From IMG/VR virus record IMGVR_UViG_3300033412_000644: 51,129 nt of DNA; one strand, written 5' to 3'. Shown piece by piece: positions 4,736 through 44,903 of this stretch. The position numbers and the translations under genes are program-made. Position 1 is the stretch's first letter; every line of letters starts with the position of its first letter. The notes under the pieces are model-generated. The model was not told the DNA's origin. It ran no database searches and worked only from the letters and a program-made list of their open reading frames with translations. The stretch is from a virus.

Positions 4736-5107
4736 ATGGCAGAGAGCAAGCTGTTCTACGTCTGGGTGACGATGATCAGCGAACCCAACGCGGAGCGCTT
4801 GGTCGGCAAGCTCGTTCGCAGGAACTGGAAGGTGCAGGCCTTGGGCAATCACCTGGTGCTGCACAGCCAGGAGAGCCCGTGTGCCTTGGTCGCCATCTCA
4901 CTGTCGCGGACTGAGCCGTTGAAGAAAGGCGAGGAGGTCGGTTACACTGCCGTCCTCGAAGAAGTCAAGGACGTGCTGAAGCGCCTCGACGTCAAGTACA
5001 TGAACCTCATCGTCACTGAGTCGACGGGCTGCACTTGGTGTTTGGGCAACATCAACCTCACGCAAGAAAAGAAGCAACTCGAAGAAGAGAAGAAGGGCCT
5101 CAACTGA
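4736..5107 (+). CDS. hypothetical protein
   Basis: Start lies 1 nt after the upstream stop. 123 aa; lysine/glutamate-rich C terminus. Confidence 0.4.
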   Translation: MAESKLFYVWVTMISEPNAERLVGKLVRRNWKVQALGNHLVLHSQESPCALVAISLSRTEPLKKGEEVGYTAVLEEVKDVLKRLDVKYMNLIVTESTGCTWCLGNINLTQEKKQLEEEKKGLN

Positions 5108-5871
5108 TGTTGCACGATTCATTGGGCGACCGCATGAAGGCCTACGAGGTCGCAGCGCGGACGGTGCTGCCTCACCGGCTGCCTGTCATCATTCGCGTCG
5201 ACGGCAAGGCATTTCACACCTACACTGCCAAGTGCGAGCGTCCATTCGACCGACGCTTGAGCGACGTCATGGTGTCGACGGCGAAGCGCCTGTGCGAAGA
5301 GATCCAGGGAGCCCAGTTGGCCTACACTCAGTCGGACGAGATTTCGATCCTGGTGCACGGCTACAAGAAGTTCGACACGCAGTCGTGGTTCGACAACCAA
5401 GTTCAGAAGATGACCAGCATCGCTGCGGCGACGGCATCATCACACTTCAGCCTCAACTCCTGGCTCATCTGGGGCGATTGGAAGGATGACACCTTCTACA
5501 AGCCCGCCGATGTCATGAAGGCGCTGCGACCGGCGACCTTCGACGCTCGCGTCTTCATCATCCCCGAGGCCGACGTCTGCAATTACTTCCTGTGGCGACA
5601 GCAGGACGCGACCCGCAACTCAGTCCAGATGCTAGCTCGCTCGCTGTACTCGCACAAGCAGTGCAACAACAAGAACGGCGTCGAGCTGCAGGAGATGTGC
5701 TTTCAAAAGGGTCACAACTGGAACGACCTGGAGCCTCGGTGGAAACGCGGCGTCTGCATCCTCCGGCCGCTGACCAACGACCGGAACCCATGGCACCTCG
5801 ACGACCAGATCCCGATCTTCTCACAGGATCGTAGCTACATCAATGACCTGCTGAAGCTTGAGGAAGAGTGA
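5107..5871 (+). CDS. Thg1-like protein (tRNA-His guanylyltransferase family)
   Basis: MKAYE...RLPVIIRVDGKAFHTYT...RPFD...SDEISIL matches the Thg1 N-terminal catalytic region (RxDGxxFHxF, PxD). TGATG overlap with the upstream gene. Confidence 0.72.
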   Translation: MLHDSLGDRMKAYEVAARTVLPHRLPVIIRVDGKAFHTYTAKCERPFDRRLSDVMVSTAKRLCEEIQGAQLAYTQSDEISILVHGYKKFDTQSWFDNQVQKMTSIAAATASSHFSLNSWLIWGDWKDDTFYKPADVMKALRPATFDARVFIIPEADVCNYFLWRQQDATRNSVQMLARSLYSHKQCNNKNGVELQEMCFQKGHNWNDLEPRWKRGVCILRPLTNDRNPWHLDDQIPIFSQDRSYINDLLKLEEE

Positions 5872-14878: not shown

Positions 14879-15073
14879 ATGAGCGTCAAAGCTGAAGGAC
14901 CCGAGTACCTGGTCGAGTTGGCGAAGGCGCAGGGAATTGCCTGCGCGACGGTGAAAGACGGCCACGTGTTGGTCTTCACCAAGAGTCACTTGGAGATGCT
15001 GCTGGCGGCGATGGCCGAGAAGCAACAGGACAAGTGCATCGTCTTCGTCAAGCGACCGGAGTTCAACGGATGA
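14879..15073 (+). CDS. hypothetical small protein
   Basis: 64 aa. ATGA overlap with the next gene. Confidence 0.35.
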   Translation: MSVKAEGPEYLVELAKAQGIACATVKDGHVLVFTKSHLEMLLAAMAEKQQDKCIVFVKRPEFNG

Positions 15074-16167
15074 GATTCGAGCCGGGATTCGTCCAGGGAC
15101 TCCGCGACGACCTGAAGCAAGTGCGCAGCGACTACCGCGACCGAGTGGAACGGCTCGGCGGTCTGACGGGTGAAGAGCTCGTCAAGTTGGTCAGCGCACC
15201 GCGGGAAGACCAAGTCGCGTTTCCGGACCACCCAACTCACCGCGACCTCGACACCTACCTCAACGCTGAAGTCCACCGCAGCGTCGGCGTCGACGCGATC
15301 AAGAACGGAGAGGTAGGTTACATCATCCTCGCTGGCGGCGCGGGCACCCGAATCGGTGGGCCCAAGGCGCTGATGCAGCTACCAGGCCTGGGCCTGTCGT
15401 TGCTGGCACAGAAGGTGATGTCGGCCAACGTCGAAGGACACGCTCTGCCGCTGTACATCATGACATCGCCAGGCATGTTGACGGACATCGGCCGGACGTT
15501 GAGCAGCCTGTCGCCCCTGCCTCAAGGCATCGCCTTTGAGCAGTTCGAGTCGTATCGTCTGACTCCCGACAATCGTTTGGCGTTTTTGAAGCCGAACGTA
15601 CCGGACCTTTATCCGACAGGTCACGGCGACGTGGGCATGGCGATCAGGACCTCGGGCGCTTTGGCCGAGAACCCCAACATCAAGCACTTCATCATCGTCA
15701 ATGTTGACAATGTGTGTGGCACTCCCGACCCGATCGTACTGGGTCATCACATCGCCACCAATGCACCGGTGACGTGTGAAGTCGTCGCTCGCAATGAAAG
15801 CGACAAAGCAGGCGGAGTGCTGGCGTGGGTCGACAACATGCTGCAGGTCGTCGAGGCGTTCCGGTTGGAGCCCAGCTTCGTCGAGGACTCGACGTACACC
15901 AACACCAACACCATGATCATCCGACGGGATGTGCTGGAGGCTGACATCACGTGGAAGTGGCACCGCGTCCGCAAGCAAGTCGGGACTCGCCTCGTCATCC
16001 AGCACGAGCGCCTGTTGCAGCAGTACACCGCGCTGCACTCCACGCGTTATGTCGTGGTGCCGCGAGAACAACGCTACTTCCCGATCAAGGATGAGGCTGC
16101 CCTGCAAGAAGCAGGCAAGCTCTTCAATGGCAACCCCATGAAGAGCGTGGTAAAATGCGAACCGTGA
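15070..16167 (+). CDS. UDP-sugar pyrophosphorylase (UDPGP family, UAP1/USP-like)
   Basis: GYIILAGGAGTRIGGPKAL nucleotide-binding loop (LAGGxGTRLG) and PTGHGDV motif. Confidence 0.65.
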   Translation: MRFEPGFVQGLRDDLKQVRSDYRDRVERLGGLTGEELVKLVSAPREDQVAFPDHPTHRDLDTYLNAEVHRSVGVDAIKNGEVGYIILAGGAGTRIGGPKALMQLPGLGLSLLAQKVMSANVEGHALPLYIMTSPGMLTDIGRTLSSLSPLPQGIAFEQFESYRLTPDNRLAFLKPNVPDLYPTGHGDVGMAIRTSGALAENPNIKHFIIVNVDNVCGTPDPIVLGHHIATNAPVTCEVVARNESDKAGGVLAWVDNMLQVVEAFRLEPSFVEDSTYTNTNTMIIRRDVLEADITWKWHRVRKQVGTRLVIQHERLLQQYTALHSTRYVVVPREQRYFPIKDEAALQEAGKLFNGNPMKSVVKCEP

Positions 16168-17673: not shown

Positions 17674-17750
17674 AACGACACCTCTGGATCATAGCTATTG
17701 GGTTGCGCTAAGGTTGTCCTGTGGGCGACGTCCAGTGTAGGATCCGCCAC

Positions 17751-18617
17751 ATGCCTGAAGGTCCGGAGCTGGCTCGCAGCCGAGATCATCTGCGAAAATT
17801 GGTGCAAGGCAAACGTCTGCGGACGTTTGGCATCAACCGCAATCACGGCGGCAGCACCGGCGGACGTTACGCCGACAAGGACCCCGAGGGAATGCTGGAG
17901 TTCCTCGGCTCGCTCAAGGCGACCGAGGCCGTCATCGACTCTGTCAACGTCAAAGGCAAGTTCATGTGGTGGACGCTGGCCTTGAAGGACGGCACTGCCT
18001 GGTGGCTGTGGTGCACCTACGGGATGTCAGGGCAGTGGACCACCAACAAGCCTGACAAGCACACCGCGGCGACGGCGTGGGTCGACAACCCCGACGGCAG
18101 TGGACTCCTGGCCGTCAACTTCCGGGACCCACGCCACTTCGGCACTCTCAAGTTCGTCAACAATCAGAAGCAGATGGAGCGCAAGCTGGCGTCGTTGGGC
18201 CCCGACATGCTCAACGACCCGCCTGACACGACCAAGTTCCGCCAGGCGCTGCTCCGCAAGCATGACCGTACGTTGGCTGAGGTGTTGATGGACCAGTCGG
18301 TCGTCAGCGGCGTCGGCAACTACGTCAAAGCCGAGAGCCTGTATCTCGCCGAGCTGTCGCCTCACCGCCTGGTGCGGGACCTCAAGACCGCCGAATTCGA
18401 GCACTTGCGGCAGCAGATCATCAATGTAATGCGCGCCAGCTACAACAATGGCGGAGCAACCATCCGTTCCTACGTGAACGTAGATGGCACCAAAGGCGGT
18501 ATGACAAGCCGCTTTGCGGTGTATGGTAACAAGACTGACCCGATGGGCAACCCCGTAGTGAAGGAAGAGACCGCTGATGGTCGCACCACCCACTGGGTAC
18601 CCACCATTCAGAAGTGA
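17751..18617 (+). CDS. Fpg/Nei family DNA glycosylase (endonuclease VIII-like)
   Basis: Canonical MPEGPEL N terminus (Pro2 nucleophile, Glu3) and an H2TH region. No zinc-finger cysteines at the C terminus. Confidence 0.75.
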   Translation: MPEGPELARSRDHLRKLVQGKRLRTFGINRNHGGSTGGRYADKDPEGMLEFLGSLKATEAVIDSVNVKGKFMWWTLALKDGTAWWLWCTYGMSGQWTTNKPDKHTAATAWVDNPDGSGLLAVNFRDPRHFGTLKFVNNQKQMERKLASLGPDMLNDPPDTTKFRQALLRKHDRTLAEVLMDQSVVSGVGNYVKAESLYLAELSPHRLVRDLKTAEFEHLRQQIINVMRASYNNGGATIRSYVNVDGTKGGMTSRFAVYGNKTDPMGNPVVKEETADGRTTHWVPTIQK

Positions 18618-20985: not shown

Positions 20986-21007
20986 TGTGAGGTACCGCAA
21001 CGACAAC

Positions 21008-21913
21008 ATGCTGCTGCGCATTGCTCAGGCTGATGCCTACGGCATGGCGCGTGAATACGTCAAGACCAAAGACGCACCTGATCACGTTGCCGAGTGCCTC
21101 AAGCTGGAGCGCTACCTGCGCCACCCTACATACCATAAGTTGCCGGCCGGCACCTACACTGACGACACCCAGATGTCGATCGCAGTGAGCGAGGTCCTGA
21201 TCAACAAGCACGGCGACGCCACCCACGAAGAGTGGGCCGAGGCGTTCTTCCAGGCGTTCAAGCGCGACCAACGAGACGGCTACTCCCGCCACTTCCAGGC
21301 GATCCTCGAGGAGGCCAGGGACAGCACCCACATGCGGTCGTTGCTGACGCCGACGTCGACTGCCAACGGCGCTTGCATGCGTGCAGTCCCGTTGGGCGTG
21401 TTGCCCAGCAAGAAGACGCTGCTTGAGGTCGCCGCCAAACAGGCGATGGTGACCCACGCGACCTACGGTGGCATCAATTCAGCCAGCGCCGTCGCCCTGA
21501 TGTCACACTTTGCCCTCTACGACCGTCGAGACTTTGCTTGCCTCTACGACTGGTGTTGCCATTGGCTGCCGGCGTTTGAGCTTTTCCGTGAGCCTTGGGT
21601 GGGCCCGGTGCAGGAGAATTCAAAGGACAAGAGGGGTCTCGGAGTCGGTATGAACACCGCGTGGGCGGTGAGCACCCTGCTCCGCGAAGAGAAGTCTTTG
21701 ATGGCGATCCTACGGCGCACCATCGAGTGGGGAGGCGACACCGATTCTGTCGCCGCGGTCGCCTGGGGAATTGCCTCGGCGCGGTACCAGGACGAGCAGC
21801 TGCCTGAGTTCTTCGAAAGAGATCTCGAAAAAGATAGTGGCAGCGCGTATGGGCCTACGTACCTGAAAGCGCTAGGCAAACAGCTGATGGACGCCTACAA
21901 CCCGCGCAGATAA
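21008..21913 (+). CDS. ADP-ribosylglycohydrolase (ARH/DraG family)
   Basis: C-terminal GGDTDSVAAVAWGIA matches the ARH GGDTDT motif. N-terminal LRIAQADAYGM. Start is 20987 (GTG) or 21008 (ATG). Confidence 0.65.
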   Translation: MLLRIAQADAYGMAREYVKTKDAPDHVAECLKLERYLRHPTYHKLPAGTYTDDTQMSIAVSEVLINKHGDATHEEWAEAFFQAFKRDQRDGYSRHFQAILEEARDSTHMRSLLTPTSTANGACMRAVPLGVLPSKKTLLEVAAKQAMVTHATYGGINSASAVALMSHFALYDRRDFACLYDWCCHWLPAFELFREPWVGPVQENSKDKRGLGVGMNTAWAVSTLLREEKSLMAILRRTIEWGGDTDSVAAVAWGIASARYQDEQLPEFFERDLEKDSGSAYGPTYLKALGKQLMDAYNPRR

Positions 21914-22990: not shown

Positions 22991-23356
22991 ATGAGCTACA
23001 ACATCGACAGCGTCGATACGCCAGTGCTCAACGCTTGGATCCTGAAGAAGGACCTAAAGCGACTGTACAAGAAGCTCGAGGGCGACCTGCCCGAGATGAA
23101 CGTACTGGAAGAACACTTGGATGACGAGCCCGACGAGGACGGTCGCATCAAGTTGCGCAGCTTCGAATGGTGCGGCACTTGGTCGGGCAACTCGTGGAAG
23201 ACGCTAATCAAGCAGGTGGCGCCCAAAGTGATGGGCGAAGTCGAAGCCATCTTCACTTGGGAAGGTGGCGACAGCATCGGCGGTCTCCTCATCAAGGACG
23301 GCAAGGTCGCTGAAGTCGATGTCAAACAACAATTGGTCAGACCAGAAGGTTGGTGA
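22991..23356 (+). CDS. hypothetical protein
   Basis: 121 aa. Confidence 0.4.
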   Translation: MSYNIDSVDTPVLNAWILKKDLKRLYKKLEGDLPEMNVLEEHLDDEPDEDGRIKLRSFEWCGTWSGNSWKTLIKQVAPKVMGEVEAIFTWEGGDSIGGLLIKDGKVAEVDVKQQLVRPEGW

Positions 23357-24171
23357 CAGTGTGCACGCTGATCATCTTGAATGAGCACCATGACGATTGG
23401 CCGTTGATCATTGCGGCCAACCGCGACGAATTCTATGATCGGCCGTCAGCAGGTCCCGACCTCTTTGACACGCTGCCGCTTGCCATCATTGCTCCCAAGG
23501 ATTTGGAGCGAGGTGGCACCTGGATGGGTGCGACGCAGACGGGTTGGTTTGTCGGTCTCACCAACCAAGACGACGGCGACCACCGTGAAGGCATGGAGTC
23601 GCGAGGTCAAGTGGTCGCCGACTGCCTACGACTGTCGGGACACAAGGAGATTGCGCGCTACCTCATTGGCCTCAACCCAGAGAAGTACAACCCATTCAAC
23701 CTCGTCTTCGGCCGACCGGGAGCGATGTTCCTGAGCAAGGTGCACCGCGGTACTGAGGTCGACATGGAGATCATCCCGCAAGGCATCACCGTCATTTCGA
23801 ACGACTGTTCGGATGCCAGGGCGTACCAACGCAAGGTCAACCACGCGCTGGTGCTGGCGGGGTCGGTGGAATTCGATGACCCACTCGATGAGGTCGTGCG
23901 AAAGCTTCACTTGGTGTTGAGTGATCACTCACACTCGTATCCGAACCCGTACCAGTCATTGTGTGTTCACGATACCGAACGTGGCTTTGGTACACGATCT
24001 TCGGCAGTTGTCGCGGTGTCAAAAGAGGGCGACGTACGCTACTATCACTCTGAGGGGCCTGCGTGTCAGGTTGACACCATTCCGCTAGTGCGTGAACTGA
24101 TGACGTTGGATCTCAGCGATTTGGAAGAACCCACTGAGCTGACAGACGACGACATCGAGGTGATCGGATGA
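23350..24171 (+). CDS. NRDE-family protein (TANGO2-like, DUF833)
   Basis: LIIAANRDEFYDRPS and GGTWMG...GLTNQ match the TANGO2 N terminus closely. GTG start overlapping the upstream stop. Confidence 0.78.
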   Translation: MVTVCTLIILNEHHDDWPLIIAANRDEFYDRPSAGPDLFDTLPLAIIAPKDLERGGTWMGATQTGWFVGLTNQDDGDHREGMESRGQVVADCLRLSGHKEIARYLIGLNPEKYNPFNLVFGRPGAMFLSKVHRGTEVDMEIIPQGITVISNDCSDARAYQRKVNHALVLAGSVEFDDPLDEVVRKLHLVLSDHSHSYPNPYQSLCVHDTERGFGTRSSAVVAVSKEGDVRYYHSEGPACQVDTIPLVRELMTLDLSDLEEPTELTDDDIEVIG

Positions 24172-27158: not shown

Positions 27159-28784
27159 ATGAACGGTTTCCAAGACCCCAACGAACCTGCATCGACTCAG
27201 GTCATCTTCTCCAGCGAAGCTCGCAAGCAACTGTACGAAGGCCTGAAGGTCGCCGCCGAAGCTGTCGGCTGCACGCTCGGCCCGAAGGGCAAGACAGTCC
27301 TCATCCAACGCCCCGGCGAGTCGCCCCTCGTCACCAAGGACGGCGTCACTGTCAGCAAGGCAATTCGCCTGAAGAATCAGGTGCAACGCATGGGCGCCGA
27401 GTTGATCCGAGAGGCTGCGGCCCGGACCAATGAGGTGGCAGGTGACGGCACCACGACGGCCACCATTCTGACCCACGCGTTGGTCCAGGAGGGCATCAAG
27501 CTGTTGGAGGCCGGTTACTCCTCACAGCTGCTGTGCCGAGGCATCGACAAGGCGGTCCAGCACCTGCTCGACCAGTTGAAGCAGGACGCCAAGCAGCTGA
27601 CGACCGACGAAGAGGTCGCCCAGGTCGGCACCATCAGCGCCAATGGCGACGCAAACATCGGCGACCTCATCGCTCAGGCGATGAAGAAAGTAGGCCGTGA
27701 CGGCATCATCACCGTCGAAGACGCCAAGGGTATGGCAACGACCCTCGAGGTCGTCGAAGGCATGCAGTTCGACCGAGGCTACCTCAGCCCCTACTTCGTC
27801 ACCAACCCCGAGCGGATGTTGGCGTCGTACGGTGATGCTCTGGTCCTGGTCACCGACAAGAAGCTCAACAGCCTCCGCGACCTGATCCCGGTGTTGGAAC
27901 AGGTGGTGCAAGCACAGCGCCCGCTGCTCATCATTGCCGAGGACGTCGAAGGTGAGGCACTGCAAGGATTGGTGTTGAACCGTGTCAAGTCGAACCTACC
28001 GGTCGTCTGCATCAAGGCGCCGGGCTACGGTTCCCACCGCGATGAACTCCTCCGGGACATCTGCGTCCTGACGGGAGCCACGCTGGTGTCTAGCGCGACC
28101 GGCGCGGACCTGAAGAGCGCCGCTGGGTGCTTGGGCCAGTGCAAGAAGATCGTTGTCGACGCCAAGACGTCGACCTTGGTCGGCACCGGCGCTACCAAAG
28201 AGCAGGTCGAGAAGCACGTCGCTGACCTCCGAGCCCAGTTGGAGGACGTCACCCTCGGCCAGGAAGACATCGTCAAGCTGAAGACCCGCGTCGCCAAATT
28301 GGCGTCAGGCGTCGCCGTCGTCAAGGTCGGCGGTGCGACTGAGGTCGAGATGAACGAACGCAAGTACCGCATCGAGGACGCACTCAACGCGACTCGCGCC
28401 GCGGCCGACGAAGGCATCGTTCCCGGCGGCGGCATGGCTCTATTCAACGCGGTCCAGGGAGTCAAGGGCGAGCTGTGCAAGCCCGGCATGGACCGCGATG
28501 AAGTCGCCGGAGTTGAGGTGGTCGTCGACGCCTGTCTCGCGCCCCTCAAAAAGATCGTCGCCAACGCCGGCCAGAACTCAGGCGTCGTCATCGACAACCT
28601 ACACCGTCAATCCGGTGTCGGCTACAACGCGGCAACCGGCAAGTACGAAGACCTGATCGCAGCGGGCATCATTGACCCGGTCAAGGTGACGCGGTCGGCG
28701 CTGCAGCACGCAGCGTCGGTGGCCACCACCTTCCTGTCGCTCGATGCAGTCGTCTGTGACGAGGAGAAGAAGGACAATGGCTGA
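27159..28784 (+). CDS. groEL: chaperonin GroEL (Hsp60), no GGM tail, no adjacent GroES
   Basis: About 50% colinear identity to E. coli GroEL (AGDGTTTATIL, VEGMQFDRGYLSPYF, PLLIIAEDVEGEAL, AADEGIVPGGG). TAGAAT -10-like hexamer 8 nt upstream. Confidence 0.95.
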   Translation: MNGFQDPNEPASTQVIFSSEARKQLYEGLKVAAEAVGCTLGPKGKTVLIQRPGESPLVTKDGVTVSKAIRLKNQVQRMGAELIREAAARTNEVAGDGTTTATILTHALVQEGIKLLEAGYSSQLLCRGIDKAVQHLLDQLKQDAKQLTTDEEVAQVGTISANGDANIGDLIAQAMKKVGRDGIITVEDAKGMATTLEVVEGMQFDRGYLSPYFVTNPERMLASYGDALVLVTDKKLNSLRDLIPVLEQVVQAQRPLLIIAEDVEGEALQGLVLNRVKSNLPVVCIKAPGYGSHRDELLRDICVLTGATLVSSATGADLKSAAGCLGQCKKIVVDAKTSTLVGTGATKEQVEKHVADLRAQLEDVTLGQEDIVKLKTRVAKLASGVAVVKVGGATEVEMNERKYRIEDALNATRAAADEGIVPGGGMALFNAVQGVKGELCKPGMDRDEVAGVEVVVDACLAPLKKIVANAGQNSGVVIDNLHRQSGVGYNAATGKYEDLIAAGIIDPVKVTRSALQHAASVATTFLSLDAVVCDEEKKDNG

Positions 28785-38741: not shown

Positions 38742-39128
38742 TCAGTCGACTGTCACCTGGACCGGCACCAGGAGAAACACCATCTTGGCCGCGCTCAACG
38801 ATAGTATCCGCCCAGCTTGCCTGCCGCCCACCACGCTGAAGTAGTTGAGGTTGGGGTCGTCGGGGTCAGAGCCCATGTACGTCAGTAGCGTCCGCCACTG
38901 GACGAGCTCGTCCTTCGGGTACGTCTGCGCTCCGGGAACGCTGAACATGACGCCCCGGCTGTGGGTGTTGCCAACCACGTAGGAAGCACCCATCGTCTCA
39001 TCCTTCATGACGACTCGAACGAGGTCACCTGCACGGAGCTGGCCTCGATTGCAAAACAGCGATCGCTTCACGTGACCACCTCCAGCTCCACGTCCTCCGA
39101 TGACACCCAAATGGGCTTGCCGTCCCAC
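38742..39128 (-). CDS. hypothetical protein
   Basis: 128 aa. Contains a GDLVRVV barrel-like segment. Confidence 0.35.
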   Translation of the reverse strand: MGRQAHLGVIGGRGAGGGHVKRSLFCNRGQLRAGDLVRVVMKDETMGASYVVGNTHSRGVMFSVPGAQTYPKDELVQWRTLLTYMGSDPDDPNLNYFSVVGGRQAGRILSLSAAKMVFLLVPVQVTVD

Positions 39129-39418
39129 AAGACGAAGTGGTACAGCACGATGCCGGGCTTGTAACCAAAGGGACCCGCCTTACCTTGCATCAAGGCTCGA
39201 AAGTCATCACGCTGAGAGCTGACGTACAATGCCTGTGATCCCGCCGGGACGTCATAGAGGTAATTCTCATGTGTAGTGTCGTCGTCCTCCCAACGCTTGC
39301 GCCACCGGGCGCGGGGGCTGTTCATCGCCTCGGGTCGCCCCCGCGCCTTGATGGGCACGTTCTCTCGCTTCTGGATCAGCGTGACCATCGTGCCTGACTT
39401 CAACACCGGCGCCTCCAC
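39068..39418 (-). CDS. hypothetical protein
   Basis: 116 aa. Confidence 0.35.
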   Translation of the reverse strand: MEAPVLKSGTMVTLIQKRENVPIKARGRPEAMNSPRARWRKRWEDDDTTHENYLYDVPAGSQALYVSSQRDDFRALMQGKAGPFGYKPGIVLYHFVLWDGKPIWVSSEDVELEVVT

Positions 39419-39575
39419 TGTCGATTGGGACGGCGGCGAATGCGCGAGGTGAAGCGCTGTTGCTTGGCCTTTTCCTGTGGCAGGCGATAGAAGAACAAGT
39501 AGACGATGATGGCGATGTCAACGATGCAGATGATGATGTCGATGATGCTGAGCCACGTATCGAGTGAATCAAGCA

Positions 39576-40058
39576 TCACCGCCGTCCCGTCTGTGCACAA
39601 TCGCACGTGTCAAACGTCTTGGTGCAGATGCCGCAGATGTGATCATCCGGTTCAGCAGGTTCGACGGCGCTCAACTGACGGGTCACGTCCTTGATGAAGT
39701 TGTCGTAGTTCATCCGCAGCATCCCCAAGTCGACCAACGTCAGCTTCTTCAGCCAGCGCGAGCCGATCTGGACGACCTGTTTGGAGCGCTCACCTGGCAT
39801 GAGAGGGTCGAAGGCGACCTGAAAAGTGTAACGCCACTTGCTGTACGACGTTGCCGGCGCGACTTCACGCTTCACCACTCGGTAGACGATGCGACGGACG
39901 AGGACGTTCTCGGCCTTGATCGTGTCCTGTGAGTAGGGACTGTCCTTTTCGTGAGCCTCGCCGTAGTAGGTGACGAGGTCGCCGACGTCGAGGTAGATGG
40001 GATCAGCCCAAGTCGGGGGAGGTGTCGTCTGCATCGCGCGGTGCGCCCACTTATGCAT
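39576..40058 (-). CDS. paralog-array member G (barrel-like N-terminal region plus conserved C-terminal helix)
   Basis: LDVGDLVTYYGE ... RIVYRVVKR ... YTFQVAFDPLMPG ... LTLVDLGMLRMNYDNFIKD. Confidence 0.5.
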   Translation of the reverse strand: MHKWAHRAMQTTPPPTWADPIYLDVGDLVTYYGEAHEKDSPYSQDTIKAENVLVRRIVYRVVKREVAPATSYSKWRYTFQVAFDPLMPGERSKQVVQIGSRWLKKLTLVDLGMLRMNYDNFIKDVTRQLSAVEPAEPDDHICGICTKTFDTCDCAQTGRR

Positions 40059-40497
40059 CGCCCCGGAGGCGCTTGACCTCCTCCTGAATGAAGGTGTCGA
40101 GCTTGAGGCGCATGGTGCCGAGCTCGACGAGCGTCACTCGAGCCATGTCAGTCGCTCCGACGTTGGTGTGGTCGTTGATGCCTTCATCATCTTCGTCGTC
40201 GCCCGGGTGTCGGAGCGGGTCGAGGACTTCTTTGATGGTGTAGTCGTACTGCCGACTCGAGAAGCGATCGGCCTTCGTGCGCTTTTTGATCCGGTAGATG
40301 ACGCGCTCACCACCGTACAGCACCAGCTCACCCACCTCGAAGATGTTCTTGTCGATGGCGGGCGGGGGCGCCGCTTGCGTTGACGAGCCTCGGCCCGGAA
40401 TCGGGCGATTGGACCACATGCCGCGAGCGGCCTTGGGAGTGGGCGGCGCCTTTTTGGGCGATGATGATGTCTTCCTACCTTGCATGCAGCCGCTCAT
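40051..40497 (-). CDS. paralog-array member F
   Basis: FEVGELVLYGGERVIYRIKKR ... YDYTIKEVLDPLRHPG ... VTLVELGTMRLKLDTFIQEEVKRL. Confidence 0.5.
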   Translation of the reverse strand: MSGCMQGRKTSSSPKKAPPTPKAARGMWSNRPIPGRGSSTQAAPPPAIDKNIFEVGELVLYGGERVIYRIKKRTKADRFSSRQYDYTIKEVLDPLRHPGDDEDDEGINDHTNVGATDMARVTLVELGTMRLKLDTFIQEEVKRLRGDA

Positions 40498-40784
40498 TCC
40501 TCACCTGACTTTCTGCGGACCATGTCCTGAATGATGTTATCGAGCTGAGCTCGTTGGGTACACAGGTCGACAACGCTGGGCACATCGACGCTGCGCCAGT
40601 GAACCTTCTTGGGCCGCAGCACCGAGGGACCAGTCACCGCCCAGAACGCTTCGAGGTGGACGTAGTCGTGGCCAGTGATCTTGTAGACTCGCCACAGGAT
40701 GCCCTCTCCAGCGCCATTTTGCATGGCCATGGTAACAACATCACCCACGGCCAGCGGGTTTTTCTCGCGGTCACGTAGGGGCAC
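40494..40784 (-). CDS. paralog-array member E (short)
   Basis: LAVGDVVTMAM ... GILWRVYKITG ... SVVDLCTQRAQLDNIIQDMVRRK. Confidence 0.45.
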   Translation of the reverse strand: MPLRDREKNPLAVGDVVTMAMQNGAGEGILWRVYKITGHDYVHLEAFWAVTGPSVLRPKKVHWRSVDVPSVVDLCTQRAQLDNIIQDMVRRKSGEE

Positions 40785-41199
40785 TGACGTCCTCCCCTGA
40801 CAGTCTCTTGGCCTCCTGCTGGATGAAGAGGTCCAGGCGGTTGCGTGCCAGGCCGAGCTCCATGAGGTCGAGCTTTATCATGTCACCGCGAAGCTCTCCC
40901 CCTCGGACCGTCGTTGTCTTTGACAGCTTGTAGTCCTGTTTGAACAGGCCGAAGATGGGCTTCAGCGTCACCTTGTACTCAGGCGGCTGTGCACCCCAAC
41001 TCTGCATCTCACCTTTCTTGACGAACTGGACGCGAGTGACCCGATAGATGGTGTTGCAGTTGGACGGGTCGGTGTACCTGATGAGGTCGTTCTTGTGAAG
41101 AACACACTTGACATTGATGATGTCCATGGCGCGTTTGACGACCTCTTTCTGGTAGGGATCCAGTTCCTTGAACATCAAAGCGTGCCGCGGTCTTTCCAC
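40771..41199 (-). CDS. paralog-array member D
   Basis: NTIYRVTRVQFV ... YKVTLKPIFGLF ... MIKLDLMELGLARNRLDLFIQQEAKRL. Confidence 0.5.
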   Translation of the reverse strand: MERPRHALMFKELDPYQKEVVKRAMDIINVKCVLHKNDLIRYTDPSNCNTIYRVTRVQFVKKGEMQSWGAQPPEYKVTLKPIFGLFKQDYKLSKTTTVRGGELRGDMIKLDLMELGLARNRLDLFIQQEAKRLSGEDVSAPT

Positions 41200-41340
41200 A
41201 CCGGATCGGTGCGACGCTTGAGGCGAACGTTGTCGCCGTACTTCGTCGGCGGAGGTGGTTGACCATAGCGTGGCCCGGGCGTGCCTCGCGTCGTGGCCAG
41301 GTACACTGCGGCTGACGCCACAATCGCTATCGTGACGTAG

Positions 41341-41859
41341 TCACCGGGATCCATCGCCTTCCATGCCGCCTTTCATGGCGAGGTCGCGGAGCAGGTTTCC
41401 CAGCTCTACGTACTTGGCGCCGAGGACGACGAGGTCGACCTTGCGCAATTGTTTCAACATGTCGTAGGTGATGATCAGAGTCTCACCTTTGCCTTTGGGA
41501 CTCTTGCCTTTGGGAGTGGCGAAGAACTCGAACAACGGCTTGATGCGGACGAAGCCCGCGACGGCCGAGTTCATGATCTTGCGGCCCTTGTCGTCGAAGT
41601 AGCCTGCCTCGTTTTCCTCAACGTCCTGGTACTCGTAGTCACGCTTCACAGCGTTGTAGACCTGGCGCTTGCGCGTCACGAGCTTGCTGTAGGCGTGAGG
41701 CTTGACAGGCGCGGTGTCCTCGTAGATCTGGAAGATGACTCCGCCAGTCTCGTCTTGGCCGCACGAATAGAGGACAAGGTCGCCTCGAGCGAAACCGTAG
41801 TCGCTGAGACGCTTGTCGAAGTGGTCGTCCTTGTACTGTTGAACCCAGCGCCGACTCAT
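41341..41859 (-). CDS. paralog-array member C
   Basis: FARGDLVLYSCGQDETGGVIFQIYED ... FVRIKPLFEFF ... LRKVDLVVLGAKYVELGNLLRDLAMKG. Confidence 0.5.
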   Translation of the reverse strand: MSRRWVQQYKDDHFDKRLSDYGFARGDLVLYSCGQDETGGVIFQIYEDTAPVKPHAYSKLVTRKRQVYNAVKRDYEYQDVEENEAGYFDDKGRKIMNSAVAGFVRIKPLFEFFATPKGKSPKGKGETLIITYDMLKQLRKVDLVVLGAKYVELGNLLRDLAMKGGMEGDGSR

Positions 41860-42034
41860 CGAGTTGACCGTACACTCTGCGGAGCCACCTTTACAGGTTC
41901 ACTCCCACTCCTCGATGAGTCGACAATCCTGCAGCGACGACCAATTCCAGGTGATGAGGTTGCCGGGTGCGGCACCATTGCGAGAGCCGGCACAGACGAA
42001 AAGCAGCACTTCCCACGACGCAGCGTGGAGGCGC

Positions 42035-42460
42035 TCACCTCCCCAGTAGTTCTTCGTCACGTGAGCTGATGTCGGCGCATAGCCCACCACCATCATCGTC
42101 AGACGGCCGTCCTCCGAAGTCATCAATGTTCCCGGTGGGAACTTTCTCTGGAGTTGTCGACGGCTCAGCGCCACGGTCTTTTGCCTCTGCTGCGATGAAG
42201 TGGCCGAACTTGAGGTACTCGTTGCTCAGGTCGACCAGGGACAGCGGAGTACAGTATCCGGCGCTGAGCCCACGTGACTTCCTGCCTTTGATGTTCGTCA
42301 ACACTCCAAAAACGGGTACGACTTTCAGCATAGGTTCGTGTTGAGAGCGACTGTGGACTTCGGCGACCCGGTAGATGATGCCGTGACCGACGTTGTCATA
42401 GACGCAAGTGCACAGCTCGCCGACTCGCCATGGATGCGTCGATGGTTTCCATTTACTCAT
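42035..42460 (-). CDS. paralog-array member B
   Basis: WRVGELCTCVYDNVGHGIIYRVAEV ... MLKVVPVFGVL ... LSLVDLSNEYLKFGHFIAAEAKDRG. Confidence 0.45.
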   Translation of the reverse strand: MSKWKPSTHPWRVGELCTCVYDNVGHGIIYRVAEVHSRSQHEPMLKVVPVFGVLTNIKGRKSRGLSAGYCTPLSLVDLSNEYLKFGHFIAAEAKDRGAEPSTTPEKVPTGNIDDFGGRPSDDDGGGLCADISSRDEELLGR

Positions 42461-42761
42461 GGTGATCCTGGTCTCGGTCGTGCGTCAGCTTCCGCATGTG
42501 TTTCTCCTGCCAACGACCTTCACGCAGCAGCTGTGTCGCTCGCATCTCGTCGATCTTGTGTTCCAGCTTCTTCATCCTGACCAATGCCGTCGCCACCGAC
42601 ATCAGACCGGCGACGCAGATACCGTTCTGCAGTCGTTCAGGAAAAGCAGGATTCCAGACGATGAAGACGGCAGTTGAGAACAACCACGCCTCTGGAAGGA
42701 ATTCGGCAAGCCAATTGAACAGCTTGGATAGCCAAGGAAGGGGACTTTGCCACAACGTCAT
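42453..42761 (-). CDS. membrane protein
   Basis: Two TM helices. 102 aa. Confidence 0.35.
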   Translation of the reverse strand: MTLWQSPLPWLSKLFNWLAEFLPEAWLFSTAVFIVWNPAFPERLQNGICVAGLMSVATALVRMKKLEHKIDEMRATQLLREGRWQEKHMRKLTHDRDQDHHE

Positions 42762-42773
42762 GATCTCACTATA

Positions 42774-43013
42774 TCACTTGTCGAAAAGTTCTCGCAGCAG
42801 CTTCATGACGTGGGCGGCATGGCGACCGTGCCACGTGAGGCTGGCGGTGTCGACTGCGCAGAGAGGAATCTCCTTCTTTTCCATGAGCTTGGACAACTCC
42901 TTGCCGCTGAGCTCCACCGAGATGAGCTTGCCTTCGACGGTCGGGAACGATTGTCCCAGCGTGTAGGAGTAGGTGACGTCTTGTTTCTTGACGTTGGCGA
43001 TGATCTTGAGCAT
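42774..43013 (-). CDS. hypothetical protein
   Basis: 79 aa. Confidence 0.35.
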   Translation of the reverse strand: MLKIIANVKKQDVTYSYTLGQSFPTVEGKLISVELSGKELSKLMEKKEIPLCAVDTASLTWHGRHAAHVMKLLRELFDK

Positions 43014-43463
43014 TCAAGCGTCCGTTACGAGTTGTGCTTGGTTGAAGTCTTCGTGATCCATCCACACTAGCTTGCCGTGCAGCATCACCACGTGCCAACG
43101 CTTCGGCGGCTGTGCCGGCGACACCATCAATCCACCTTCGTCGAGCATTGGAATGTTGGAGCCTGGCACCATGGCGGGTCCAGGATCGTCTGGCACGATG
43201 ACGACGAAGGTGTCGCCTCGCTTGATCATCACCTGTTCCTGCGTGTAGTCGAGGAAGTTTTCACGGGCCGATGACGTCACAGTGCTGAACATCCACCACC
43301 CGTCGTTGACCAGGAAGTTCCAGCGCCAGAGCTGTCCGGGCCTAACGACGATAGGTTCGACTGGTTCGTCTGACGTCTCGTTGTACCCGTCCATTGAAGT
43401 CCTGATCGAACATGTTGATTCCATGGTCTTCTTCTCGCTCCACTTCGTACTCGACGCTGCCAT
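43014..43463 (-). CDS. hypothetical protein
   Basis: 149 aa. Start uncertain. Confidence 0.35.
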   Translation of the reverse strand: MAASSTKWSEKKTMESTCSIRTSMDGYNETSDEPVEPIVVRPGQLWRWNFLVNDGWWMFSTVTSSARENFLDYTQEQVMIKRGDTFVVIVPDDPGPAMVPGSNIPMLDEGGLMVSPAQPPKRWHVVMLHGKLVWMDHEDFNQAQLVTDA

Positions 43464-43776
43464 CGATGTTGGCGGTGCACTTGATGTCGACGATCGACGG
43501 ATCGTCTACGTCGATGCCGTGGTATGTCTTCAGGTCCTCAGCAACCTCGGCGGACCAGCGAGCGTTGAGCTTCCGGGACTTGGCGAGGATGGGTTGTGAC
43601 TGGACCTCGATGGTCTCCATCCACGGAGGGTTCGCCCACAATACCACGGCTTCTTCGGCCAACGCGACCAACGTGCCGCGTGCGGCTTGGTCTTCAACGT
43701 GGGTGACGAAAGCACCGGGCGCAAGTCGACTGCCGTCTAGGCGCTGGATGAAACTGGGCGCATACTTGCGGAGCAC
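43342..43776 (-). CDS. hypothetical protein
   Basis: 144 aa. Confidence 0.35.
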   Translation of the reverse strand: MLRKYAPSFIQRLDGSRLAPGAFVTHVEDQAARGTLVALAEEAVVLWANPPWMETIEVQSQPILAKSRKLNARWSAEVAEDLKTYHGIDVDDPSIVDIKCTANIDGSVEYEVEREEDHGINMFDQDFNGRVQRDVRRTSRTYRR

Positions 43777-44005
43777 GTTTCATCGTATGCCACACCTCAG
43801 TCGATGGGCAACAACGATTCACACCGCGCAGTCCACAAGCAACCGTAGGCCCACACCGTTCGCCAACTTCGATTGGTGGCAATCACAGTTGCCAGGATCA
43901 TGTCTGGCAGCTCAATGTCGACCTCGACGATATCAGCATCACCGCCGTGAATGGGATAAAGCATTGCGCCGTGAGCGATGCGGACCAGATCACCTGGCAG
44001 CGCGC

Positions 44006-44269
44006 TCACGGCCTGAACAACCACCTTTCGCTCTTGACGTCGTCGATGAAGAGCAGGCGATTGGTACGCAAGTGCAGCAGCGTCGCCGGCATCAGACCGT
44101 AGTCATCGCAGCAGCTGATCACCATCATCAGGTCGCCGTAGTCGAGCTGTACGCCGTCGATGGGATAGTCCGGCACTGTCCACAGTTGGTTGTAGTCGAC
44201 GTCCTCCTCGTGCTCACAGGTCGTCAACAGTTCACCCGGCTCGACGCACATCGGCACCAATGCCATCAC
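44006..44269 (-). CDS. hypothetical protein (possible degenerate array member)
   Basis: VEPGELLTTCEHEED...QLWTV resembles the barrel start of the array family. Confidence 0.3.
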   Translation of the reverse strand: MMALVPMCVEPGELLTTCEHEEDVDYNQLWTVPDYPIDGVQLDYGDLMMVISCCDDYGLMPATLLHLRTNRLLFIDDVKSERWLFRP

Positions 44270-44613
44270 TTCATCCCCTTTCGCTTGGCCTCTTCGAGAA
44301 TGAAGTGGTCAAGTCGCATCCTGGCTGTCGCGAGGTCGAGGAGTCGAACCGCGACCCATCCCCTGGGTTCGGCGGTGGTGTAGCGACGAGGGTCATCGGC
44401 GATGATTGACGCCGACCACAGATCGAGCACGGGATAGAAGTGAAAGCGGAAGCGCTGTTCGGGTGAGGCGCCGAGGACGACGACCTCGATGTCGTGTAGC
44501 AAGTAAACGACCCAGGGTGCGGGTCCAAACGTGGTGCCAGTGCCCGACTGGAGCGTGTTGATGTAGAGTTCGCCCTTGACGTACTCTTTACCCTTGTAGT
44601 CGCCCCGCTCCAT
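44266..44613 (-). CDS. paralog-array member A
   Basis: VKGELYINTL ... FRFHFYPVLDLW ... AVRLLDLATARMRLDHFILEEAKRKG. Confidence 0.45.
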   Translation of the reverse strand: MERGDYKGKEYVKGELYINTLQSGTGTTFGPAPWVVYLLHDIEVVVLGASPEQRFRFHFYPVLDLWSASIIADDPRRYTTAEPRGWVAVRLLDLATARMRLDHFILEEAKRKGMK

Positions 44614-44627
44614 GATTCAAATTACCA

Positions 44628-44903
44628 TCATCGCATCCAGTGGTTCCGCGGAATCCACCAGAAGCGATTGTTGTGGAAGACGGTGCACCGCTCTTCTCCG
44701 TTGTTGTAGCGCTCGACGAAGACGATGAGCGCGGGCCACCGAGAGTCGAGCTTCTTGCCTTCGAGCGGGTCCAGAAACTTGCGCATCCCATCGGGAGGCC
44801 ATTGGCCCTTCACTGTTTCAGGCGCGAACCAGACGAGGTCACCAGGGAGAGGATTCCACGATCCGGACGGCGTCGACTGCAGGTCGATCTGCCTCACGAT
44901 CAA
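44628..44903 (-). CDS. hypothetical protein
   Basis: 91 aa, Trp-rich. Confidence 0.35.
   Translation of the reverse strand: MIVRQIDLQSTPSGSWNPLPGDLVWFAPETVKGQWPPDGMRKFLDPLEGKKLDSRWPALIVFVERYNNGEERCTVFHNNRFWWIPRNHWMR

Follow-up and report, generated by a model that had tools for sequence, protein, structure and literature searches.

Within a 51,129-nucleotide stretch of viral DNA (IMG/VR virus record IMGVR_UViG_3300033412_000644; hereafter the window, meaning the whole stretch at its full length), seven small open reading frames (ORFs) on the minus strand between positions 39,576 and 44,613, designated here as paralogs A to G, encode proteins built on one common domain, a small barrel followed by a C-terminal helix. 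All belong to a single long block of tightly packed minus-strand genes (Table 1). A preliminary description of this region, made from the sequence alone, had called it a tandem array of seven divergent paralogs. All seven members do lie in one region, but the array is interrupted: five unrelated genes separate A from B, and near-contiguity is confined to C to G, where a single 59-amino-acid (aa) membrane ORF lies between C and D. From C through G and on into the subsequent genes, stop and start codons overlap by 1–14 nt (the start of F overlaps the stop of E by 4 nt, and G overlaps F by 8 nt), which suggests that these genes are co-expressed. A promoter search returned 0 sites for the T4 late-promoter motif TATAAATA or for sigma-70-like promoters, and the count of terminator-like hairpins was not above expectation.

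We assessed the relationship among the seven ORFs by leave-one-out searches, in which a Hidden Markov Model (HMM) built from six members was searched against the seventh and against 1000 shuffles of the same protein. The resulting E-values were 2.6e-6 (A), 1.1e-7 (B), 7.1e-5 (C), 1.3e-11 (D), 9.1e-6 (E), 5e-15 (F), and 4.5e-11 (G), whereas the best of the 1000 shuffles per protein reached only 0.035 to 2.2. Because the leave-one-out values lie far beyond those of the shuffles, the paralogy is real, and by this comparison the seven minus-strand ORFs are true paralogs sharing one architecture. The preliminary description had named E-values above 0.01 between members, under shuffling controls, as the level at which its proposal would collapse; all seven values fall well below it. 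Identity between paralogs is low (15–30%), and pairwise BLAST links F to G (3e-13), D to F (1e-7), and A to D (3e-5). Against family HMMs of 7 or 171 members covering barrel and helix, the seven ORFs scored E-values of 1e-29 to 6e-16, and neither model detected an eighth member in a six-frame translation of the window.

Two ORFs that had been put forward as possible degenerate members do not belong to the family. The one at 43797–44024 gave no match to the 7-member HMM, overlaps a 229-nt gap, and has no counterpart in related loci; the other, at 44006–44269, reached E = 11 with that model and a profile–profile probability of 4% against the array family, and was ruled out as an array member. 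The latter, on the minus strand, represents a separate conserved family of small proteins, with counterparts in the related loci L002 (60%), L003 (46%), and L008 (33%). Its invariant residues include P-G-x-L-x-T-T, E-D-x-D, Y-G-D, and W-L, a set matching no known family. Distant membership was likewise rejected for the ORFs at 45868–46158, 45423–45755, 44628–44903, 43014–43463, 39068–39406, and 38742–38993, each with an hhalign probability of ≤1% against the family.

The gene calls are supported by orthologs in independent metagenomes at 45–70% identity, by ratios of nonsynonymous to synonymous substitution rates (dN/dS) below 0.4, and by an independent gene call that gives the same genes on a Logan contig of identical sequence. 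The plus-strand ORFs at 41449–42069 and 43412–44383 are longer, but their GC content at third codon positions is lower, and on this sequence evidence they are shadow ORFs. For paralog D, translation most likely starts at the ATG at 41175 (134 aa) rather than at the GTG at 41199 (142 aa), because the N-termini of orthologs and the independent gene call agree on the former.

The motifs singled out in the preliminary description correspond to family-wide conserved columns: V-G-[DE]-L-V, I-[YFW]-R-V, P-[VI]-F, and the C-terminal helix, whose column-wise consensus is L-V-D-L-G-x-x-[RY]-x-x-L-[DG]-x-F-I-x-x-E-A-K-R. An AlphaFold2 (AF2) model of the B core, based on a 147-sequence alignment, has a predicted local distance difference test score (pLDDT) of 92.8 and a predicted template modeling score (pTM) of 0.80, with strands at residues 16–19, 28–36, 44–52, 63–66, and 70–73 and a C-terminal helix at residues 75–95. 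A model of C from 38 sequences (pLDDT 90.8) shows the same barrel and helix, with the insert between strands 2 and 3 forming a hairpin extension of three long strands. Each paralog is thus a small, soluble protein of a single domain, modeled as a five-stranded SH3-like barrel of Tudor/KOW type with an amphipathic C-terminal helix as its cap. The earlier guess of a chromo/Tudor/SH3-like arrangement was thus correct at the level of the fold, while membership in a named family is not seen at the sequence level: profile searches of the PDB with the whole-family and B-type alignments yielded nothing significant, and Foldseek against the viral predicted structures of BFVD gave no match at E < 1e-3, only weak matches to uncharacterized small barrels.

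The scaffold common to all paralogs comprises strand 1 (VGDLV), strand 2 (IYRV), strand 3 (PVF), and the helix (LVDLGxxRxxLDxFIxEEAKR). What differs from paralog to paralog but is conserved among orthologs is the insert between strands 2 and 3, the loop joining strands 3 and 4, and the tails at both termini. Of the aromatic residues that could contribute to a Tudor-type cage of 3–4 residues for methyl-Arg/Lys, the one in strand 2 (Y/F/W at column 38) is conserved in every subfamily, and a Trp preceding strand 1 is confined to the B type. Median isoelectric points (pI) are 9.1–9.4 for the C, D, and F types, near neutral for A, B, and E, and slightly acidic for G. F types carry the SPKK-like basic N-terminal tail, and paralog F has an acidic loop between strands 3 and 4. 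The tail of B consists of an acidic linker followed by GGGLCADISSR, and the ending G-L-C-A-D-I-S-x-R recurs in 7 B-type representatives. The motifs in the tails of B (42035–42160) and G (39576–39650) may be interaction or metal-binding peptides. Cys-rich tails were seen in G (CGIC...CDC) and in P0005, the E ortholog of L002 (CCGTC...CRC).

Next, we examined the distribution of the family. An exhaustive HMM search covering 1.84 billion representative proteins, with clusters counted at 50% identity, identified 217 clusters at E ≤ 1e-3, all of them metagenomic; 46 of these reached E ≤ 1e-10. Typical members are 95–190 aa long and span the whole profile; two repetitive proteins in the match list (P0035 and P0076) were discarded as false positives. 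In IMG/VR, the family occurs on 3 contigs, and relatives are also found on the contigs ERZ1292618 and ERZ1292621 from Hainich groundwater wells. No C-type patterns were found in 185,579 prokaryotic species genomes (GTDB), neither blastn of the region nor tblastn of B and C matched any of 50,697 phage records, and the 20 kb on each side of the major vault protein (MVP)-like gene of the published huge-phage genomes LR756500 and LR756501 hold no family members. Scans of all seven members against Pfam, PHROGs, and NCBIfam, and a Pfam scan of 147 family members, returned no significant family, which bears out the earlier statement that no named family could be assigned. The family is previously undescribed and specific to a clade of uncultivated huge phages, although its fold is well known. 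In five fusion proteins (P0051, P0107, P0128, P0143, and P0167), an N-terminal domain of ~140 aa with conserved Cys residues and an "ERHAT" motif precedes the barrel–helix domain; this N-terminal domain has no Pfam match, and neither the window nor the related loci encode a homolog of it as a separate protein.

The orthologs of each window paralog form a separate group, with 45–70% identity within groups as against 15–30% between paralogs. Single-linkage clustering at E ≤ 1e-15, in which no window sequences served as references, placed one window paralog in each of seven clusters (B, 47 sequences; G, 39; C, 39; E, 12; D, 9; A, 7; F, 4), and at least three further clusters, or subfamilies, contain no member from the window. 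B is the largest subfamily, with 47–51 cluster representatives, and G has 38–39 ortholog clusters. A, the most divergent paralog, has orthologs such as P0043 at 45% identity, in a cluster of 7 representatives; those of D include P0030 at 62% and the L002 gene at 49–50%, and the F orthologs P0039 and P0033 carry the same basic N-terminal tail. Gene order is also retained. L002 has the order B-C-D-E-F, at 59, 70, 50, 85, and 51% identity to the window, respectively, with A and G absent. L003 has B-C-D′-D″-E, including two D-like copies, L001 has C-B′-G′-B″, and L011 has E-G; in L013, one E-type gene stands alone, with Ku, DNA-ligase, and RNA-ligase genes around it.

We then compared selection on the array genes and their neighbors. 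Gene-wide dN/dS ratios between the window and L002, calculated by the Nei–Gojobori method, were 0.38 (B), 0.24 (C), 0.36 (D), 0.16 (E), and 0.27 (F), compared with 0.21 for the MVP-like gene and 0.35 for the receiver gene of the same block; since dS is near saturation, these values are if anything overestimates. Column-wise conservation showed that the loops vary between paralogs yet are kept within ortholog groups. In the basic, Gly-rich C-type loop FFATPKGKxPKGKG, for example, F, F, T, G, and K are invariant across 20 orthologs and the other named positions are conserved at ≥90%; further subfamily-specific conserved loops are NGAGEG and TGPSV in E and RxxR in B. Because of the separate ortholog groups, the retained order, the dN/dS ratios like those of neighboring genes, and the loops conserved within groups, the pattern, as read from sequence comparison, is one of old subfunctionalization under purifying selection rather than of an arms race. 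By the same comparisons, the array is an ancient, vertically inherited multigene family. We hold the family, the fold, and the evolutionary picture, taken together, with high confidence.

These results bear directly on the proposal, made in the preliminary description, that the array consists of rapidly diversifying paralogs with host-range, anti-defense, or immunity functions. Under this explanation, the genes would be diversified anti-defense, host-range, or superinfection-immunity effectors, each directed against a different host or competitor system. The proteins are indeed small and phage-restricted, without cellular homologs; copy number and membership vary (L002 without A and G, L003 with two D-like genes, L013 with a single member); at least three extra subfamilies have no member in the window; and small membrane proteins are interleaved with the array. 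However, the paralogs are ancient, each with its own conserved orthologs in a conserved order, including the B-C-D-E-F order kept in L002. Their gene-wide dN/dS ratios of 0.16–0.38 are indistinguishable from those of the flanking genes, the loops are conserved within ortholog groups, and the Pfam and PHROGs scans gave no defense- or anti-defense-related domain. Rapid diversification was therefore not borne out, no finding here indicates an anti-defense role, and we consider an arms-race function improbable.

On the sequence matches found, the window comes from a genome of at least 357 kb belonging to a huge phage. An ENA contig of 357,674 bp carries a near-identical sequence, the MVP-like protein is 41–44% identical to proteins of LR756500 and LR756501 (462 kb and 735 kb), and several window proteins match PHROGs. 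No cultured phage among the phage records searched matched the region. Related loci carry the T4-type markers Endonuclease VII, T4_Y16D, and Gp23, together with eIF-1a; an eIF-1a/IF1-like translation initiation factor lies a few kb from the array in L001 (15588–15893), L003 (18404–18676), and L011 (13466–13735). The auxiliary gene set, spread over positions 1–36000 of the window, is unusually rich and, besides the genes listed in Table 1, includes papain-like and trypsin-like proteases. The window also encodes a FEN-type exonuclease, an AAA ATPase, and a metallophosphatase.

Table 1. Array members, neighboring genes of the block, and auxiliary genes of the window
Feature	Positions	Strand	Length (aa)	Remarks
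Paralog A	44266–44613	minus	115	most divergent member
Paralog B	42035–42460	minus	141	barrel + helix core at residues 1–100, then acidic tail
Paralog C	41341–41859	minus	172	barrel + helix; long beta-hairpin insert of ~45 residues between strands 2 and 3
Paralog D	40771–41175	minus	134 (from ATG)	basic, pI ~9.4
Paralog E	40494–40784	minus	96	minimal form of the domain
Paralog F	40051–40497	minus	148	basic, Pro-rich, SPKK-like disordered N-terminal tail, then domain
Paralog G	39576–40058	minus	160	domain + Cys-rich C-terminal tail CGIC...CDC
Small membrane protein	42453–42761	minus	102	directly upstream of B, overlap 8 nt; hydrophobic segments
Small membrane ORF	41175–41354	minus	59	overlaps C stop and D start
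Small membrane ORF	39400–39576	minus	58	directly after G, overlap 1 nt
o126	43014–43463	minus	126–149	unknown function, beta-rich; most widely retained array neighbor
gp23-fragment ORF	43342–43776	minus		homologous only to T4 gp23 residues 226–288; conserved neighbor, not a family member
HExxH ORF	44915–45568	minus		HELSH; no Pfam, PHROG, or NCBIfam match
Cys-rich peptide	45680–45871	minus	63	upstream of array; signal-peptide-like N-terminus
SPFH/Band-7 protein	46392–48362	minus	656	follows MVP-like gene; the pair heads the block holding the array
MVP-like protein	48396–51092	minus	898	major-vault-protein repeats + shoulder domain (Pfam MVP_shoulder, 3.6e-30)
Isocitrate lyase	776–2128
Thg1-like tRNA-His guanylyltransferase	5035–5871
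UDPGP-type transferase	15034–16167			nucleotidyltransferase
Fpg	17721–18617
ADP-ribosylglycohydrolase	20987–21913
TANGO2	23350–24171
GroEL	27159–28784

The sequence itself shows the neighbors noticed in the preliminary description, namely the small membrane ORFs interleaved with the members, the HExxH ORF, and the Cys-rich peptide; the CheY-like receiver in the block was confirmed by a domain scan. The membrane ORFs are themselves retained: the one upstream of B has counterparts in the same position in L002 (73% identity) and L003 (60%), the one between C and D has a 39% match at the equivalent place in L003, and the one after G is found at 64% identity in L002 and 65% in L003. By tblastn, o126 occurs upstream of a B-type gene in L001, L002, L003, L007, and L008 at 32–53% identity. 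It has no Pfam or NCBIfam match and an hhalign probability of 0.1% against the array family; a weak profile similarity links it to the ORF at 39068–39406 (hhalign probability 26%). The MVP-like and SPFH genes head the block in the window as well as in L002 and L003 (L002:2833–5553; L003:2061–4151). No paper in the literature covered by the search links vault proteins to jumbo or huge phages, and a phage-encoded protein resembling the vault shell could be of interest by itself.

The gp23-fragment ORF raises the possibility of a capsid-associated role, in which the paralogs would be head-internal, decoration, or assembly-accessory proteins acting with gp23-fragment-like proteins. This ORF, which lies within the block, matches Pfam Gp23 (3e-9, above the curated cut-off), gp23 in the PDB (2.3e-5), and PHROG_138, major head protein (2.8e-8). 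In L001, L002, L003, and L011, the gene directly upstream of a family member is a small ORF with a Pfam Gp23 match. In the relatives, this second gp23-like ORF of 117–196 aa (L003:9617–9970; L011:4403–4993) matches gp23 residues 96–134, with weak PDB matches (E 0.013 and 0.57 for L003 and L011, respectively); the window lacks it and has a 175-nt gap at 41860–42034 instead. These gp23-fragment ORFs could be assembly factors, decoys, or relics. In addition, a moderately conserved [GS]-x-[ED] motif, resembling the prohead-protease sites of giant phages, closes the domain just before the variable tails, and giant phages such as phiKZ offer an analogy in their paralogous inner-body and internal head proteins. 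Nonetheless, no bona fide head, portal, protease, or scaffold gene was found in the window or around the array in the related loci, and the paralogs share no propeptide-like N-terminal region. The adjacency may be mere shared synteny within one phage clade, and the solo E-type gene of L013 has no Gp23-like neighbor. A capsid-associated role appears unlikely.

The membrane ORFs and the head of the block point to a further possibility, that the paralogs are subunits of one hetero-oligomeric, possibly membrane-associated assembly, following a Sm/LSm-like logic through the shared helix; among its partners could be the membrane proteins interleaved with the array and the MVP-like and SPFH scaffold proteins encoded upstream. 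The fixed order with overlapping stop and start codons, the helix as the most conserved element across all paralogs, and the complementary charges (C, D, and F basic, G acidic) are consistent with such an assembly, as are the small transmembrane ORFs conserved at fixed positions and the MVP-like and SPFH genes heading the same block in the window, L002, and L003. Conversely, the helix is confidently placed in a monomer model (pLDDT 92–98 at residues 71–100; pTM 0.80), and R94/D98 versus Y94/G98 co-vary; together these would reflect an intramolecular structural role of the helix. Moreover, the relatives hold 1–5 members, with no fixed number. We assign this assembly a low probability.

A more specific version, in which the paralogs would form a phage-encoded hetero-oligomeric Tudor/KOW-barrel complex, a Sm-like solution reached from a different barrel topology, is less probable again. 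If it were true, the complex could remodel the transcription or translation machinery of the host or organize a very large phage genome, and might act with the gp23-fragment proteins or with the vault-protein-like and SPFH scaffold. It would then be a new kind of multi-subunit takeover or "chromatin" machine confined to a clade of huge phages. Finally, chance similarity or non-coding ORFs, which the pairwise identity of only 15–30% and the longer ORFs on the opposite strand might suggest, are refuted by the results already obtained: leave-one-out E-values down to 5e-15 against 0.035 or worse for shuffles, the 217 homologous clusters, dN/dS below 0.4, and the confident AF2 models.

Taken as a whole, the array is best explained, if tentatively, as a co-expressed set of adaptor proteins that share one scaffold and differ in paralog-specific loops and tails. 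Each paralog would act as a binding module whose ligand specificity is fixed and particular to it, and the set would be produced together and act together, possibly as a hetero-oligomer. The most likely targets would be nucleic acids or nucleoprotein machines in the infected cell, namely DNA of the phage or the host or the machinery of transcription or translation, and the genes would represent conserved host-takeover or regulatory adaptors rather than fast-evolving counter-defense genes. This functional part, binding of nucleic acids or nucleoproteins, is possible but more doubtful than the adaptor set itself, and is drawn by analogy. Characterized prokaryotic barrels of the same type, including the KOW domains of NusG/Spt5, the RNA-polymerase-interacting Tudor domains of CarD, Mfd, and UvrD, uL24, and Sso7d, bind nucleic-acid or nucleoprotein targets, and for that reason such targets are favored here. 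Also in keeping with the putative nucleic-acid role are the basic loops in B, C, and D, the SPKK-like tail carried by F, and the position of the solo E-type gene in L013 amid DNA and RNA repair genes.

Several observations weigh against the adaptor explanation. Small Gp23-like ORFs directly upstream of family members in four related loci hint at a capsid-related role, and the interleaved small membrane proteins together with the upstream MVP-like and SPFH genes could indicate a membrane-associated assembly. The pI is not uniformly basic across the paralogs, with A, B, and E near neutral and G slightly acidic, and copy number among relatives ranges from 1 to 7 per locus. Nor was a significant sequence link found to any KOW, Tudor, or CarD family.

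Where ancient paralogs are kept together in a conserved operon, they are usually parts of a multi-component machine or adaptors of fixed specificity, not disposable arms-race cargo, and the array therefore offers a tractable handle on the interaction of this phage clade with its hosts. Among the hundreds of functionally uncharacterized genes in huge phages, one sizeable family is now defined with a confident fold. Binding of the barrels to RNA polymerase, ribosomes, or DNA would make them a new class of takeover factors in phages; a capsid association, on the other hand, would shed light on the construction of very large heads. The results also correct an assumption, in that tandem paralogs in phages need not be rapidly diversifying.

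At the level of the fold, the domain can be set beside NusG, PWWP, PsaE, NdhS, Tudor domains, Xrn1, uL24, and the RNA polymerase-binding Tudor domain of UvrD/PcrA. As in Tudor domains, the array family has an SH3-like beta-barrel of four to five strands, and the "W-K-V-G-D-K-C ... Y" of SMN/SPF30 resembles "W-x-V-G-D-L-C ... G-x-I-Y-R-V" across strands 1 and 2 of the array proteins. SMN_Tudor (PF06003) was the only recurrent weak Pfam match, in 5 of the 147 members with a best E-value of 0.0026, below the curated cut-off, and the PDB profile search placed the SPF30 Tudor domain at E 0.76; neither amounts to a profile match to Tudor. The array proteins differ from Tudor domains and from the CarD/CdnL, Mfd RID, and UvrD/PcrA domains in being stand-alone, with an integral C-terminal capping helix, and from Tudor-type domains in forming a multi-paralog operon in phages. 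Similarity to the KOW domains of NusG/Spt5 and uL24 extends to the barrel fold, but the array family has neither an NGN domain nor a ribosomal context and lacks the KOW sequence motif: KOW (PF00467) matched 0 of the 147 members at E ≤ 1, and a single trace of KOWx_SPT5 appeared at E 0.04. Chromo-barrel and PWWP domains and the 7-kDa chromatin proteins of the Sso7d/Cren7 type also rank among the closest known systems. The array family likewise departs from Sso7d/Cren7, which combine an SH3-like barrel and C-terminal helix with a strongly basic character and a profile of their own, and from Sm/LSm proteins, with their N-terminal helix, bent five-stranded sheet, and ring-forming paralogs.

A literature search for arrays of Tudor/SH3 paralogs or for vault proteins in jumbo phages gave nothing relevant beyond a general review. 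In Bacillus phage G, a zinc ribbon has expanded to ~35 copies, proposed to be specific regulators or structural DNA-binding proteins (PMC7824862). Like the array described here, that expansion is a multi-copy family of a small domain in a giant phage. The fold differs, and whereas the phage G case is a recent expansion within a single genome, the array copies are ancient orthologous lineages maintained across a phage clade.

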